DNA of 64,000 bases from Escherichia coli (GTDB taxonomy: Bacteria > Pseudomonadota > Gammaproteobacteria > Enterobacterales > Enterobacteriaceae): the NCBI RefSeq assembly GCF_003334305.1, contig NZ_QOWS01000006.1; one strand, 5' to 3'. The notes under the pieces were generated by a model, which was not told the DNA's origin, did not search any database, and saw nothing but the letters and a program-made list of their open reading frames with translations. The stretch's first letter is position 1. Every line of letters starts with the position of its first letter. The position numbers and the translations under genes were made by a program. Of this stretch, positions 4,882-50,315 are shown piece by piece.

Positions 4882-6399
<1,518 letters not shown>

Positions 6400-6535
6400 T
6401 TAATTCCACTGTGAAAACGAATATTTATTTTGCGTTCCCGTTTGTTTTATTTTTGTTAACATTTAATATAATTATTATTAACCTCGTGGACGCGTTAATG
6501 GCTAACTCATAATGGGTATTCAATAAGCTGCATTC

Positions 6536-6551
6536 TGTGATTGTTATCACA
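6536..6551. promoter_or_regulatory. CRP (cAMP receptor protein) site, perfect consensus palindrome TGTGATTGTTATCACA
   Basis: Exact TGTGA-N6-TCACA seen in sequence within the cai/fix intergenic region. Confidence 0.7.
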
Positions 6552-6592
6552 TTTTTGTTTCGGGTGAATAGAGGGCGCTTTTCTCGTTAATT

Positions 6593-6607
6593 TTGATTAT
6601 TAATCAG
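6593..6607. promoter_or_regulatory. possible FNR/CRP-family half-site pair TTGATTATTAATCAG (imperfect)
   Basis: Resembles TTGAT-N4-ATCAA with a shifted or imperfect right half; cai/fix are anaerobically induced. Confidence 0.3.
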
Positions 6608-6647
6608 TTTGTTATGTTGTGTTGTGAGTAAAAAAATAGCATCTGAC

Positions 6648-6778
6648 TTTCAATATTGGTGATCCATAAAGCAATATTGAAAATTTCTTTTTGCTACGCC
6701 ATGTTTTCAATATTGGTGAGGAACTTAACAATATTGAAAGTTGGATTTATCTGCGTGTGACATTTTCAATATTGGTGA
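6648..6778. promoter_or_regulatory. CaiF-type activator sites: three copies of TTTCAATATTGGTGA, two of them paired with CAATATTGAAA after a 13-bp spacer
   Basis: Copies at 6648-6662, 6705-6719 and 6764-6778; partners at 6672-6682 and 6729-6739; the core CAATATTG is itself a palindrome; lies in the divergent caiT-fixA control region. Confidence 0.7.
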
Positions 6779-6869
6779 TTAAAGTTTTATTTCCAAATTA
6801 AAGGGCGTGATATCTGTAATTAACACCACCGATATGAACGACGTTTCCTTCATGATTTCTGGAGATGCA

Positions 6870-7640
6870 ATGAAGATTATTACTTGCTATAAGTGCGTGC
6901 CTGATGAACAGGATATTGCGGTCAATAATGCTGATGGTTCATTAGACTTCAGCAAAGCCGATGCCAAAATAAGCCAATACGATCTGAACGCTATTGAAGC
7001 GGCTTGCCAGCTAAAGCAACAGGCAGCAGAGGCGCAGGTGACGGCCTTAAGTGTGGGCGGTAAAGCCCTGACCAACGCCAAAGGGCGTAAAGATGTGCTA
7101 TCGCGCGGCCCGGATGAACTGATTGTGGTGATTGATGACCAGTTCGAGCAGGCACTGCCGCAACAAACGGCGAGCGCACTGGCTGCAGCCGCCCAGAAAG
7201 CAGGCTTTGATTTGATCCTCTGTGGCGATGGTTCTTCCGACCTTTATGCCCAGCAGGTTGGTCTGCTGGTGGGTGAAATCCTCAATATTCCGGCAGTTAA
7301 CGGCGTCAGCAAAATTATCTCCCTGACGGCAGATACCCTCACCGTTGAGCGCGAACTGGAAGATGAAACCGAAACCTTAAGCATTCCGCTGCCTGCGGTT
7401 GTTGCTGTTTCCACTGATATCAACTCCCCACAAATTCCTTCGATGAAAGCCATTCTCGGCGCGGCGAAAAAGCCAGTCCAGGTATGGTCGGCGGCGGATA
7501 TCGGTTTTAACGCCGTGGACGCCTGGTCTGAACAACAGGTTGCTGCGCCGAAACAGCGCGAACGTCAGCGCATCGTGATTGAAGGCGACGGCGAAGAACA
7601 GATCGCCGCATTTGCTGAAAATCTTCGCAAAGTCATTTAA
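6870..7640 (+). CDS. fixA: electron-transfer flavoprotein beta-subunit homologue (carnitine reduction)
   Basis: Track ORF 6807-7640 is 5'-extended; the ATG at 6870 ([14 protein letters not shown]) is preceded by GGAGAT and matches the FixA N-terminus. Confidence 0.9.
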
Positions 7641-43827: not shown

Positions 43828-46490
<2,663 letters not shown>

Positions 46491-46532
46491 GGTTTGGGTC
46501 CTTGTCTCTTTTAGAGCGCCTCGCTTCGGGCA

Positions 46533-46560
46533 TAAAAAAACCCGCGCAATGGCGCGGGTT
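46533..46560 (-). terminator. leu operon attenuator (intrinsic terminator between leuL and leuA)
   Basis: Minus-strand CCCGCGCCATTGCGCGGG followed by TTTTTTTA, 22 nt after the leuL stop. Confidence 0.85.
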
Positions 46561-46582
46561 TTTTGTTTGACTGCGTGCTGGC

Positions 46583-46669
46583 TTAATGCTGGATGCCGCT
46601 CACTCGTCTACCGCGCAAAGAAGATGCGTTTAGTAGTAGTAGACCGATAAAGCGAACGATGTGAGTCAT
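46583..46669 (-). CDS. leuL: leu operon leader peptide (28 aa, four tandem Leu codons)
   Basis: Hand translation of the complement of 46583-46669 gives [28 protein letters not shown]; the four Leu are all CUA; followed by the attenuator hairpin; it is the 3' part of track ORF 46583-46774. Confidence 0.85.
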
Positions 46670-46899
46670 TAAATCAGCTCCAGATGAATGCGATATGCTT
46701 TTAGAGTTACTGGATACAAAAACGGATGTCAACCCTGACGCAATAAAAACGTCCCGCCAGCGTGAGTTCTGCATCCGTAAAATTAGCTAATTGTGCTGCG
46801 GTGGTTAAAGTAAGCGATATTAATTTCTGCTTAACTACCGACGCTTTTCATCGGTTGACATATTTCAGCATAAATTTTTGCATCTAATCAACGAGGAAA

Positions 46900-47150
46900 A
46901 AGGGGACAAAATGCACGCGTTGCAAAACCTATCCTGATGATTTGTATTGAATTATATGTTTTGCGATTTTTTTTGATATTGATTTGGTGAATATTATTGA
47001 TCAATTAATGTTAAGAATTAATGCATTAAATATATAAATTAATTATTAAATAAGCACATTTAATCCATTTTGTAGATGATTGAGTATTCGCGGTAGTTAT
47101 GATTAGATTGTTTTCGCAACAAAAACATTATGGATTATTATGCTGTGGTA
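46900..47150. promoter_or_regulatory. strongly AT-rich leuO upstream region (candidate H-NS nucleation / LeuO autoregulation zone)
   Basis: Runs such as TTGATCAATTAATGTTAAGAATTAATGCATTAAATATATAAATTAATTATTAAATAAG; no coding capacity. Confidence 0.5.
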
Positions 47151-47328
47151 AATGACTCATTCCACGGCAATGGATTCTGTTTTTATCAGAACCCGTATCT
47201 TTATGTTTTCCGAATTTTACTCATTTTGCTTTTTCTTATTTTATATGCATGATAAATCATATTCTTCAGGATTATTTCTCTGCATTCCAATAAGGGAAAG
47301 GGAGTTAAGTGTGACAGTGGAGTTAAGT

Positions 47329-48273
47329 ATGCCAGAGGTACAAACAGATCATTCAGAGACGGCGGAGTTAAGCAAGCCACAGCTACGCATGGTCGATCTC
47401 AACTTATTAACCGTTTTCGATGCCGTGATGCAGGAGCAAAACATTACCCGTGCCGCTCATGTTCTGGGTATGTCGCAACCTGCGGTCAGTAACGCTGTTG
47501 CACGCCTGAAGGTGATGTTTAATGACGAGCTTTTTGTTCGTTATGGCCGTGGTATTCAACCGACTGCTCGCGCATTTCAACTTTTTGGCTCAGTTCGTCA
47601 GGCATTGCAACTAGTACAAAATGAATTGCCTGGTTCAGGTTTTGAACCCGCGAGCAGTGAACGTGTATTTCATCTTTGTGTTTGCAGCCCGTTAGACAGC
47701 ATTCTGACCTCGCAGATTTATAATCACATTGAGCAGATTGCGCCAAATATACATGTTATGTTCAAGTCTTCATTAAATCAGAACACTGAACATCAGCTGC
47801 GTTATCAGGAAACGGAGTTTGTGATTAGTTATGAAGACTTCCATCGTCCTGAATTTACCAGCGTGCCATTATTTAAAGATGAAATGGTGCTGGTAGCCAG
47901 CAAAAATCATCCAACAATTAAGGGCCCGTTACTGAAACATGATGTTTATAACGAACAACATGCGGCGGTTTCGCTCGATCGTTTCGCGTCATTTAGTCAA
48001 CCTTGGTATGACACGGTAGATAAGCAAGCCAGTATCGCGTATCAGGGCATGGCAATGATGAGCGTACTTAGCGTGGTGTCGCAAACGCATTTGGTCGCTA
48101 TTGCGCCGCGTTGGCTGGCTGAAGAGTTCGCTGAATCCTTAGAATTACAGGTATTACCGCTGCCGTTAAAACAAAACAGCAGAACCTGTTATCTCTCCTG
48201 GCATGAAGCTGCCGGGCGCGATAAAGGCCATCAGTGGATGGAAGAACAATTAGTCTCAATTTGCAAACGCTAA
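47329..48273 (+). CDS. leuO: LysR-type global transcriptional regulator (H-NS antagonist)
   Basis: Track ORF 47152-48273 is 5'-extended through AT-rich DNA; the ATG at 47329 ([33 protein letters not shown]) gives 314 aa. Confidence 0.9.
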
Positions 48274-48590
48274 CTGAATGCAGAATAGGCCAGACATGAA
48301 TGTCTGGTTTATTCTGCATTTTTTATTGAATGTAGAATTTTATTCTGAATGTGTGTGCTCTCTATTTTAGGATTAATTAAAAAAATAGAGAAATTGCTGT
48401 AAGTTGTGGGATTCAGCCGATTTATTGTCAATTTAATCCTTCGTAATGGAGGATTTTATCGTTTCTTTTCACCTTTCCTCCTGTTTATTCTTATTACCCT
48501 GCGTTTATGTCTCTGGCTGCCAATTGCTTAAGCAAGATCGGACGGTTAATGTGTTTTACACATTTTTTCCGTCAAACAGTGAGGCAGGCC

Positions 48591-50315
48591 ATGGAGATGT
48601 TGTCTGGAGCCGAGATGGTCGTCCGATCGCTTATCGATCAGGGCGTTAAACAAGTATTCGGTTATCCCGGAGGCGCAGTCCTTGATATTTACGATGCATT
48701 GCATACCGTGGGTGGTATTGATCATGTATTAGTTCGTCATGAGCAGGCGGCGGTGCATATGGCCGATGGCCTGGCGCGTGCGACCGGGGAAGTCGGCGTC
48801 GTGCTGGTAACGTCGGGTCCAGGGGCGACCAATGCGATTACCGGCATCGCCACCGCTTATATGGATTCCATTCCATTAGTTGTCCTTTCCGGGCAGGTAG
48901 CGACCTCGTTGATAGGTTACGATGCCTTTCAGGAGTGCGACATGGTGGGGATTTCGCGACCGGTGGTTAAACACAGTTTTCTGGTTAAGCAAACGGAAGA
49001 CATTCCGCAGGTGCTGAAAAAGGCTTTCTGGCTGGCGGCAAGTGGTCGTCCTGGACCAGTAGTCGTTGATTTACCGAAAGATATTCTTAATCCGGCGAAC
49101 AAATTACCCTATGTCTGGCCGGAGTCGGTTAGTATGCGTTCTTACAATCCCACTACTACCGGACATAAAGGGCAAATTAAGCGTGCTCTGCAAACGCTGG
49201 TGGCGGCAAAAAAACCGGTTGTCTACGTAGGCGGTGGGGCAATCACGGCGGGCTGCCATCAGCAGTTGAAAGAAACGGTGGAGGCGTTGAATCTGCCCGT
49301 TGTTTCCTCATTGATGGGCCTGGGGGCATTTCCGGCAACGCATCGTCAGGCGCTGGGCATGCTGGGAATGCACGGCACCTACGAAGCCAATATGACGATG
49401 CATAACGCGGATGTGATTTTCGCCGTCGGGGTAAGATTTGATGACCGAACGACGAATAATCTGGCAAAGTACTGCCCAAATGCCACTGTTCTGCATATCG
49501 ATATTGATCCTACTTCCATTTCTAAAACCGTGACTGCTGATATCCCGATTGTGGGGGATGCTCGCCAGGTCCTCGAACAAATGCTTGAACTCCTGTCGCA
49601 AGAATCCGCCCATCAACCGCTGGATGAGATCCGCGACTGGTGGCAGCAGATTGAACAGTGGCGCGCTCGTCAGTGCCTGAAATATGACACTCACAGTGAA
49701 AAGATTAAACCGCAGGCGGTGATCGAGACTCTTTGGCGGTTGACGAAGGGAGACGCTTACGTGACGTCCGATGTCGGGCAGCACCAGATGTTTGCTGCAC
49801 TTTATTATCCATTCGACAAACCGCGTCGCTGGATCAATTCCGGTGGCCTCGGCACGATGGGTTTTGGTTTACCTGCGGCACTGGGCGTCAAAATGGCGTT
49901 GCCAGAAGAAACCGTGGTTTGCGTCACTGGCGACGGCAGTATTCAGATGAACATCCAGGAACTGTCTACCGCGTTGCAATACGAGTTGCCGGTACTGGTG
50001 GTGAATCTCAATAACCGCTATCTGGGGATGGTGAAACAGTGGCAGGACATGATCTATTCCGGCCGTCATTCACAATCTTATATGCAATCACTACCCGATT
50101 TCGTCCGTCTGGCGGAAGCCTATGGTCACGTCGGGATCCAGATCTCTCATCCGCATGAGCTGGAAAGCAAACTTAGCGAGGCGCTGGAACAGGTGCGCAA
50201 TAATCGCCTGGTGTTTGTTGATGTTACCGTCGATGGCAGTGAGCACGTCTACCCGATGCAGATTCGCGGGGGCGGAATGGATGAAATGTGGTTAAGCAAA
50301 ACGGAGAGAACCTGA
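48591..50315 (+). CDS. ilvI: acetolactate synthase III large subunit
   Basis: Track ORF 48507-50315 is 5'-extended; the ATG at 48591 ([28 protein letters not shown]) gives 574 aa; TPP-enzyme motifs. Confidence 0.95.

Follow-up and report, generated by a model that had tools for sequence, protein, structure and literature searches.

The DNA in front of leuO in this Escherichia coli contig raises the question whether it belongs to the gene or to its control region. A purely mechanical search yields a 373-aa open reading frame (47152..48273, plus strand), which begins within AT-rich DNA upstream of the annotated leuO, and this in turn raises the question where translation of LeuO starts. I analysed the locus within the window, i.e. 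the whole stretch of 64,000 bp, and in an alignment of orthologous loci from 79 Enterobacteriaceae species. The DNA between leuL and leuO is very probably non-coding and is the control region shared by the divergent leuLABCD and leuO of E. coli, a region that is already known as ordinary regulatory DNA.

The original prediction had named the flanking genes as divergent leuLABCD and leuO, and this identity is established by a Leu_leader match, a LeuO equivalog match, the RefSeq annotation and identity to K-12 (coordinates in Table 1). The spacer between the RefSeq features of leuL and leuO (46670-47328) measures 659 bp with 67.1% A+T, and all 659 bases are identical to those of E. coli K-12 MG1655 (window coordinates equal K-12 coordinates minus 37039). 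Compared to the leuO control regions described in K-12 and Salmonella, it is thus the same DNA as that of K-12, with no differences in the spacer, and the locus was found in 5400 of 5426 complete E. coli genomes. The left edge that was assumed at first, 46775, is not a biological boundary; it merely reflects where a mechanical 63-aa open reading frame that encloses leuL (46583..46774, minus strand) ends, and lies 105 bp off. The leuL peptide is kept across the 79 loci. LeuO itself scores 572.4 bits against NCBIfam NF007063 (cutoff 262), with residues 10-314 aligned, its effector-binding domain matches PDB 6GZ0/6GZ1, and HTH_1 (PF00126) and LysR_substrate (PF03466) domains are precomputed for the cluster that holds this exact protein. 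In a search of representatives at 50% identity, homology in all relatives starts at LeuO residue 17-21, from which it follows that the N-terminal tail is specific to the family and unconserved. The LeuO encoded here has Ser9, in contrast to the Pro9 of several other LeuO sequences from E. coli.

Table 1. Features of the leuL-leuO locus in window coordinates (a dot marks features without a strand)
Feature	Position	Strand	Basis or remark
leu operon leader RNA (attenuator)	46534..46683	-	Rfam RF00512 Leu_leader, 145.8 bits vs gathering 50, full length
leuL leader-peptide CDS, 28 aa	46583..46669	-	RefSeq in a 100%-identical strain and K-12
leuL promoter: -35 TTGACA 46732-46727, -10 TAACTC 46709-46704, TSS 46696	46696..46732	-	
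Conserved 16-mer TTAGCTAATTGTGCTG, candidate Lrp site	46783..46798	.	87-102 bp upstream of leuL TSS
AT-rich core, presumed H-NS/StpA platform	46800..47200	.	Composition; H-NS binding from literature
ATATTGATTTGGTGAATAT, candidate core of LeuO binding site I	46976..46994	.	Likeness to cas promoter palindrome
TTAAT/ATTAA cluster, including palindromes TTGATCAA (starts 46997) and TTAATGCATTAA (47018-47029)	47004..47064	.	
Non-coding part of mechanical 373-aa ORF	47152..47310	+	
Conserved block TATGTTTTCCGAAT with RcsB-type half site TTTTCCGA (47206-47213), candidate BglJ-RcsB box	47202..47215	+	
Proximal leuO core-promoter block CTTATTTTATATGCATGATAAATCATA, ends at TSS 47261	47235..47261	+	Identity 0.84 across genera
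Upstream initiation module: SD AGGGAG 47299-47304, 6-nt TTAAGT, GTG 47311, in leuO frame	47299..47313	+	-7.9 kcal/mol
Annotated initiation module: SD GGAG 47319-47322, spacer TTAAGT, ATG 47329	47319..47331	+	RefSeq; -5.9 kcal/mol
leuO CDS, 314 aa, LysR-type regulator	47329..48273	+	RefSeq WP_001297362.1

The marked AT-richness claimed for 46775-47328 is real. With 69.1% A+T, these 554 bp stand well above the mean of the window, 46.8% (sd 4.2% in 554-bp windows; z = 5.4), and rank first among stretches of their length in the 64 kb; 0.03% of all 554-bp windows are equally AT-rich, and the window-wide maximum of 69.5% begins at 46777-46778. The richest 200 bp (46941-47140) reach 78.5% A+T, and the part from 46670 to 46775, which holds the leuL promoter, is less AT-rich than the rest of the spacer. 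A/T tracts in the AT-rich core amount to 30/kb versus 9/kb, and TpA steps to 89/kb versus 40/kb. The repeated TTAAT/ATTAA runs that were predicted are in excess only locally: nine occurrences in a 111-bp cluster, against 2.8 expected, represent an enrichment (p about 0.007), but the 11 occurrences over the 554 bp are not clearly above the 6.2 expected from composition (p about 0.07). Nine of these 11 fall within 47004-47064. One E. coli genome carries an IS1 insertion at 47002-47010. The helical periodicity of AA/TT is weak (p about 0.03) and was given no weight. The 10-bp motif TCGATAAATT, the published high-affinity site of H-NS, is not enriched in the spacer, where it has two matches only, each with 2 mismatches, and is therefore uninformative.

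High A+T together with silencing by H-NS is typical of acquired islands, and the AT-rich DNA might be a horizontally acquired insert that H-NS silences as foreign. However, the spacer is flanked by core genes and present in the same 5400 of 5426 E. coli genomes, and its features recur far beyond the species: in the 79 Enterobacteriaceae it is 567-759 bp long (median 635) with 56-69% A+T (median 65.6%), and the leuA-leuO interval, which includes leuL and the leader, is also long and AT-rich in Yersinia (1104 bp, 69% A+T) and Morganella (861 bp, 61% A+T). The outgroup DNA was obtained via three sequences from a homologue search aimed at Yersiniaceae, which returned mostly fragments. Mobile-element features are absent from the spacer, save for the secondary IS1 insertion of the one strain. 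I consider an acquired origin exceedingly improbable. In the AT-rich core, sequence identity among the 79 species is only 0.2-0.6, yet length and A+T content are conserved, and sequence conservation in the spacer is limited to five short islands, each of which fits a promoter, a protein-binding or a translation-initiation element.

On the leuL side, a conserved block at 46681-46733 covers the leuL promoter, whose start corresponds to K-12 83735 (minus strand) with 3642 reads (Kim et al. 2012, whose TSS table also lists the promoter sequence). The conserved 16-mer farther upstream has a mean identity of 0.92 across genera; it agrees with the Lrp consensus YAGHAWATTWTDCTR at 13 of 15 positions, and at most 3 mismatches are seen in 78 of the 79 loci. 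The spacer holds four such Lrp-like matches versus 0.41 expected, and leuO is an Lrp target by SELEX and ChIP-seq in the literature, so that a putative Lrp site may be placed exactly at 46783-46798. Within the AT-rich core, ATATTGATTTGGTGAATAT is identical at 15 of 19 positions to ATATTCATACTGTGAATAT, the sole 19-bp palindrome in the K-12 cas promoter, a likeness that is not significant alone. LeuO site I at leuO is described as having a palindrome near-identical to that of the cas promoter (PMC6698644), and its core may lie at 46976..46994, in which case the leuO region and the cas promoter would share a 19-bp palindrome-like LeuO site.

On the leuO side, the block with the RcsB-type half site shows an identity of 0.78 across genera. 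The half site fits the core wwTTCykA and lies 48-55 bp upstream of the mapped leuO start at 47261; the BglJ-RcsB site has the same published core and is located about 57 bp upstream of the P2 start, which suggests 47206-47213 as the candidate BglJ-RcsB box. The start at 47261 equals K-12 84300 (plus strand; 68-nt 5'UTR; Kim et al. 2012), and it is backed by only 4 reads because leuO is silent in laboratory culture. A scan of the spacer for consensus sigma-70 promoters returned one site (TTCGCA, 17 nt, TATTAT, at 47113-47141), which is possibly the distal promoter P1; as this is fewer than in shuffled sequences, the site was given no weight. Stratmann et al. (2012) have reportedly mapped P1, P2, the BglJ-RcsB site and the sites of LeuO at base resolution; the base-level placements given above are indirect. 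The candidate Lrp, LeuO and RcsB-type positions coincide with the few islands that are conserved in the 79 species, and can serve as a guide for mutagenesis.

The roles of H-NS/StpA, LeuO, BglJ-RcsB and Lrp, as well as the transcription starts, are taken from the literature. leuO is silenced by H-NS/StpA, has two promoters, P1 and P2, is autoregulated by LeuO and is activated by BglJ-RcsB (PMC5025477, PMC3950696, PMC6698644). An H-NS ChIP-chip signal was observed at leuO in E. coli (PMC1636352), and H-NS ChIP-seq and counter-silencing were reported for leuO of Salmonella (PMC10981669). Together these papers bear out the claim that the spacer is a known H-NS/LeuO regulatory zone; studies of this control region include those of Breddermann and Schnetz (2016) and Fragel et al. 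(2019), and in Salmonella those of Chen and Wu and of Figueroa-Bossi et al. (2024).

From left to right, the layout I propose would consist of the leuL promoter (start at 46696), the conserved Lrp-like box at 46783-46798 and the AT-rich platform, some 400 bp at 70-78% A+T in which composition is conserved and sequence is not. On this platform H-NS and StpA would polymerise and keep the leuO promoters off, and it would also bear the LeuO autoregulatory site or sites. At the right end, an RcsB-type box would be followed by the proximal leuO promoter with its start at 47261 and by an unstructured 5'UTR of 50-68 nt. Silencing would be relieved by BglJ-RcsB beside the proximal promoter, by LeuO itself, by supercoiling driven by transcription from the neighbouring leu promoter, or by insertion of an IS element. 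The bgl, cas (upstream of casA), yjjQ-bglJ and proV promoters are likewise AT-rich platforms that are silenced by H-NS filaments and relieved by a specific DNA-binding antagonist, LeuO and/or BglJ-RcsB. However, leuO as the target of silencing is a core regulator that is inherited vertically, and unlike in these other systems the platform is shared with a divergent and highly active biosynthetic promoter.

Alternatively, an unannotated small gene or small RNA may account for the length of the spacer. At 659 bp the spacer is unusually long, and this length is conserved; it contains several mechanical open reading frames of 22-59 aa, and a weak additional start is present at K-12 83745 (plus strand, 3 reads). 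However, these frames are intact in only 0-13 of 75 loci, sequence conservation is low over the central 400 bp, and searching 46300-48600 against Rfam with a permissive E-value yielded the Leu leader and chance-level matches only, with no RNA family in the spacer. A hidden gene is thus very improbable. Folding of the leuO 5'UTR leads in the same direction: RNAalifold on the 79 aligned 5'UTRs gave an empty consensus structure, and single-sequence folds of the 5'UTR and of 47150-47345 had z-scores of -0.8 to +0.5, which indicates that the 30 conserved nt preceding the ATG do not represent an RNA structure.

The AT-rich DNA could finally be coding if the 373-aa frame were a genuine, N-terminally extended LeuO. 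The frame is indeed open over 59 additional codons, and LeuO of 373 aa has been deposited in GenBank (AAN41736.1 and others), yet an open frame of such length also occurs in 1.7% of shuffles of the T-rich upstream DNA. The ATG of the frame, at 47152, precedes the mapped leuO start at 47261 by 109 nt, although a transcript from the distal P1 could still cover it. In the anti-SD duplex calculation no Shine-Dalgarno sequence was detected before this ATG (-3.1 kcal/mol, compared to -7.9 at GTG 47311 and -5.9 at ATG 47329). Outside Escherichia the 59-codon extension is intact in none of 75 orthologous loci, due to frame-shifting length differences in 51 and in-frame stops in 24, whereas the next 6 and 22 codons are intact in all 75. 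Even within E. coli, O157:H7 and other strains carry a common allele, TAA at 47212, that cuts the extension short. The extension overlaps the conserved promoter and RcsB-type elements, and the frame in which the same promoter block is read differs between E. coli and Citrobacter. The extension does not improve the LeuO family score (571.6 bits with it, 572.4 without). There is next to no chance that the 373-aa form is genuine. As was suspected, the frame is artificially extended, its length being due to nothing more than the chance absence of in-frame stops from the T-rich upstream DNA as far back as 47151. Such over-extended 'longest ORF' calls are familiar from older genome annotations, and the 373-aa LeuO stands in the records of Shigella flexneri 301 and 2457T, S. 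sonnei Ss046 and some E. coli; the case differs from the usual one in that LeuO has at least six lengths in the databases, namely 294 (an older K. pneumoniae record), 314, 320/322, 342, 367 and 373 aa. RefSeq has corrected the 373-aa form. The AT-rich stretch and the long frame are thus the control region of leuO known from textbooks and an artefact of annotation, with nothing new to explain there.

The same cannot be said of the start codon. The original prediction took ATG 47329 as the real start, and this matches both RefSeq and the start in the outgroups; however, it is not the sole candidate, as the in-frame GTG 47311 is conserved and has the stronger Shine-Dalgarno sequence. Protein evidence for an N-terminus upstream of MPEVQTD was looked for and not found. 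The two starts are preceded by an exact 10-nt direct repeat, GGAGTTAAGT, at 47301-47310 and 47319-47328. The module of ATG 47329 is homologous to the single module of Yersinia, GTGGAGTTAAGC-ATG, and also to those of Morganella and Providencia, and the upstream module is missing in these three genera. Judging from these homologies, ATG 47329 is the ancestral leuO start. Among the 79 Enterobacteriaceae loci, a start codon is found at the position of GTG 47311 in 72, and both starts are present in 64. In eight species, the Kluyvera group and Kosakonia oryzendophytica, the upstream codon is the only start (always ATG with a strong SD), seven species have lost it and retain the position of ATG 47329 only, and not a single one lacks both. 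In all 79 aligned loci the frame between the two starts is free of indels and stops. The downstream SD is kept wherever ATG 47329 exists, and decays (mean -4.0 kcal/mol) in the eight species that have only the upstream start. Coding and RNA-level constraint are inseparable over the 18 nt between the starts, because the substitutions are too few for an analysis by codon position and the segment overlaps the downstream SD.

These patterns suggest that GTG 47311 may be used in E. coli. Translation in the Enterobacteriaceae probably can start there as well, which would add six residues (MTVELS) to the non-conserved tail, so that LeuO of E. coli could be 320 aa, 314 aa, or both. A more far-reaching reading is that GTG 47311 provides the principal N-terminus of E. 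coli LeuO (320 aa) and that the RefSeq start lies six codons too far downstream. The stronger SD at an equal spacing of 6 nt, the retention of the upstream start in 72 of the 79 species, in eight of them as the only possible one, and the uninterrupted frame between the starts are all in line with this reading. NCBI, moreover, annotates LeuO from the upstream start in K. pneumoniae (322 aa), Trabulsiella (321 aa) and Kluyvera, and a 320-aa E. coli LeuO is deposited on 235 contigs. On the other hand, the ancestral module is that of ATG 47329, its SD is maintained wherever this ATG is present, the seven species with this start alone do without the upstream one, and LeuO of the 314-aa numbering has shown activity in vivo as well as in vitro (PMC6698644). 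All in all, I regard a principal start at the GTG as unlikely, albeit far less so than the alternatives discussed above. GTG is also a weaker initiator than ATG.

Returning to two starts that coexist, their history may have been a tandem duplication of 18 bp, comprising GGAG, 6 nt, the start codon and NCA GN, in the ancestor of the Enterobacteriaceae. This would have generated two in-frame starts, mostly both kept, with a few reciprocal losses. In E. coli, where both are intact, LeuO would either be made as 320 and 314 aa, or this master regulator, being tightly silenced, would have in the upstream module a back-up or a site for loading ribosomes. I would give this scenario an even chance. No description of such a duplication of the leuO start module was found in the literature examined. 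Tandem in-frame starts that give two isoforms exist in E. coli in infB, clpB and cheA. leuO resembles these genes in having two in-frame starts, each with its own SD, but its starts are only 18 nt apart and resemble an 18-bp tandem duplication, and the predicted products differ by merely six residues in an unconserved tail.

One regulator is thus represented in public databases by at least six lengths, the 373-aa artefact among them. LeuO is a master antagonist of H-NS, and the comparative evidence suggests that it may have an alternative N-terminus that is six residues longer. The choice of start would then matter for tagged constructs and for expression plasmids that are cloned from the annotated ATG.

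The DNA between the divergent leuLABCD operon and leuO is markedly AT-rich, as the original prediction had it: A+T makes up 69.1% of positions 46775-47328, while the window averages 46.8% (z = 5.4), a value matched by just 0.03% of windows of equal length, and no other 200 bp of the window are as AT-rich as 46941-47140 (78.5%). A/T tracts of at least 4 nt occur at threefold, and TpA steps at 2.2-fold, the density of the window. The repeated TTAAT/ATTAA runs that had been noticed stand out only locally. Nine of their 11 occurrences lie in 47004-47064, where they exceed what composition predicts (p about 0.007), but over the whole region the excess is marginal (p about 0.07). The left edge at 46775 has to be abandoned, since it only marks where a mechanical ORF of 63 aa, engulfing leuL, ends; the true spacer begins at 46670. 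Second in A+T within the window is 6364-6917, whose 554 bp are 67.9% A+T, rising to 72% in the 200 bp of 6590-6789.

The RefSeq positions of leuL and leuO (table) were taken from a strain 100% identical here, from K-12 MG1655 and from a third strain. As the spacer 46670-47328 is identical to K-12 83709-84367 at 659 of 659 positions, the window coordinate equals the K-12 coordinate minus 37039.

Genes and conserved islands around the leuL-leuO spacer (window coordinates)
Feature	Position	Strand	Remark
leuA	44919-46490	-	
leu leader	46534-46683	-	Rfam Leu_leader, 145.8 bits (gathering score 50)
leuL CDS	46583-46669	-	RefSeq-equivalent position
leuO	47329-48273	+	RefSeq equivalent, 945 nt, 314 aa
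leuO as mechanical ORF	47152-48273	+	373 aa
ilvI			fourth of the four genes, after leuA, leu leader and leuO
Island 1	46681-46733		
Island 2	46785-46795		extends to 16-mer 46783-46798
Island 3	47202-47215		
Island 4	47235-47261		
Island 5	47299-47328		

The leuL-leuO stretch is present in 5400 of 5426 complete E. coli genomes. The other 26 gave no match and another 27 matched over less than 80% of it, such as NZ_CP065615.1, where the match is restricted to the leuL end; these genomes possibly carry leuO deletions or rearrangements. Scanning a single genome from each species yielded 80 Enterobacteriaceae loci, in 79 of which both leuL and leuO could be placed. Their spacers measure 567-759 bp (median 635) with 56-69% A+T (median 65.6%), compared with about 52% in leuO itself, and in Yersinia and Morganella the leuA-leuO interval is likewise long and AT-rich. 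Since identity to the window sequence is only 0.2-0.6 in the central part (46800-47200) of the alignment of all loci, it is the length and composition of the spacer that are conserved, and mostly not its sequence. The exceptions are five short conserved islands, numbered from left to right.

That the spacer is a known H-NS/LeuO regulatory zone is borne out by the literature. H-NS and StpA silence leuO, which has at least two promoters, a distal P1 that reaches full activity only when hns and stpA are both mutated and a proximal P2 activated by BglJ-RcsB, and LeuO regulates its own gene both positively and negatively (PMC5025477, PMC3950696, PMC6698644). H-NS occupies leuO in E. coli ChIP-chip (PMC1636352) and in Salmonella ChIP-seq; in the latter species, counter-silencing of leuO by transcription introduced upstream exceeds tenfold (PMC10981669).

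Several islands coincide with known or candidate elements. Island 1 is the leuL promoter, with its transcriptional start site (TSS) at window 46696 (K-12 83735, minus strand, 3642 reads, TTGACA, 17 nt, TAACTC; Kim et al. 2012). The 16-mer of island 2, TTAGCTAATTGTGCTG, ranks with the most strongly conserved elements in the spacer and is kept in almost all 79 species. It agrees at 13 of 15 positions with YAGHAWATTWTDCTR, the string that serves as Lrp consensus in the literature, and a match with at most 3 mismatches is found there in 78 of 79 loci; allowing up to 2 mismatches, the spacer has 4 Lrp-like matches where its shuffles lead one to expect 0.41. Genomic SELEX and ChIP-seq studies report leuO as a direct Lrp target, and 46783-46798 is a candidate for the base-level site of this binding. 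Island 3 carries TTTTCCGA, in agreement with wwTTCykA, the core published for BglJ-RcsB. Most genera have TATATTCCTAA here, which comes close to the RcsB half in the RcsAB box given by the paper on that core. [quoted passage not shown] Position 47212 in this box is polymorphic within E. coli: K-12 and the window have CCGAAT, O157:H7 and others CCTAAT. T is the Enterobacteriaceae consensus, and the allele could affect BglJ-RcsB responsiveness. Island 4 ends exactly at 47261, the sole leuO TSS of Kim et al. 2012 (K-12 84300, plus strand, 4 reads, 68-nt 5'UTR). LeuO site I at leuO bears a palindrome near-identical to that of the cas promoter (Fragel et al., PMC6698644). In K-12 that promoter has just one palindrome of 19 bp, ATATTCATACTGTGAATAT. 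The spacer resembles it most closely at 46976-46994 (ATATTGATTTGGTGAATAT, 15/19), where I would tentatively place the core of site I.

Insertions upstream of the gene activate leuO. One complete E. coli genome, NZ_CM194533.1, has a 768-bp IS1 (1429-2196 of its locus, L003) at window 47002-47010, inside the TTAAT/ATTAA cluster, with the 9-bp target duplication CAATTAATG; it splits most of the AT-rich core off from the proximal leuO promoter.

The leuO-ilvI spacer (48274-48506) is also AT-rich (67.4%). Within it are yabR (48428-48472, minus strand), which is K-12 b4726, encodes a small protein of 14 aa and is labelled 'hypothetical protein' in the identical strain, and, at 48333-48347, a palindrome matching the Lrp consensus, as would suit the control of ilvIH by Lrp. 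On the plus strand, the terminator hairpin of the leu attenuator gives a partial Leu_leader hit as well (46511-46565, 33.9 bits), and because it is symmetric, with U/A runs flanking both sides, it may stop transcription in either direction.

The 373-aa ORF had been judged an artificial extension of leuO, and seven independent lines confirm that its additional 59 codons (47152-47328) are non-coding. The mapped TSS comes 109 nt after its ATG. No Shine-Dalgarno sequence precedes this codon (anti-SD duplex -3.1 kcal/mol, vs. -7.9 and -5.9 for the gene-adjacent modules). The aligned extension is intact in none of 75 non-Escherichia loci (51 with frame-shifting length, 24 with in-frame stops); all 75 keep its last six codons, 47311-47328, and leuO codons 1-22 intact. 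The E. coli and Citrobacter extensions run through the conserved promoter block in frames that differ from each other. In O157:H7 and two other divergent E. coli strains the T at 47212 creates an in-frame TAA, which reduces the extension to 38 open codons. The LeuO equivalog model scores 571.6 bits with the extension and 572.4 without it, aligning to residues 69-373, and 1.7% of shuffles of the same T-rich DNA give an equally long open frame. GenBank nevertheless holds the 373-aa form for several Shigella and E. coli genomes.

The proposed start of leuO, ATG 47329, has GGAG upstream of it at a spacing of 6 nt and is both the RefSeq call and the ancestral start; beside it, however, is a conserved tandem start. 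An exact 10-nt direct repeat, GGAGTTAAGT, lies in island 5. Its first copy, 47301-47310, is directly followed by GTG 47311, which is in frame, and its second, 47319-47328, by the ATG. Scoring both positions across the 79 aligned loci gave start codons at both in 64, upstream only in 8, downstream only in 7 and at neither in none, and no indel or stop separates the two positions in any of the 79. The upstream-only loci (the Kluyvera group and Kosakonia oryzendophytica) all use ATG, and their downstream Shine-Dalgarno has decayed (mean -4.0 kcal/mol); the downstream-only loci belong to Siccibacter, Atlantibacter, Klebsiella indica, Silvania and Raoultella terrigena; in R. terrigena an ATG stands one codon beyond. 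Yersinia, Morganella and Providencia, used as outgroups, possess a single initiation module, in Yersinia GTGGAGTTAAGC-ATG, almost the same as the E. coli downstream module, and no counterpart of the upstream one. The downstream ATG is thus ancestral, and the upstream module was added in Enterobacteriaceae, plausibly by an 18-bp tandem duplication. A third copy of GGAGTTAAG at 47363-47371, within leuO codons 12-14, is found in Escherichia only, has no start codon after it and is probably without consequence; the in-frame peptide thus has ELS three times (RELS, VELS, AELS).

The annotated start varies: NCBI begins LeuO at the upstream codon in K. pneumoniae (322 aa), Trabulsiella and Kluyvera, and at the downstream codon in E. 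coli, Salmonella and Citrobacter, with a 320-aa E. coli form on 235 contigs. Deposited lengths in E. coli and Shigella are 314, 320, 342, 367 and 373 aa, and K. pneumoniae records hold an older 885-nt call besides the 322 aa. This diversity is a clean case of start-codon annotation drift. Because homology to all other LysR-type proteins begins at residue 17-21, the choice of start alters just the length of an unconserved tail, and LeuO as numbered with 314 aa is functional (PMC6698644).

The AT-rich leuL-leuO finding is thus real and was read correctly, as a control region that is already known. The conserved tandem start is the sole loose thread: it leaves ATG 47329 as the real start short of proof at the protein level, and it gives no rescue of the 373-aa ORF.
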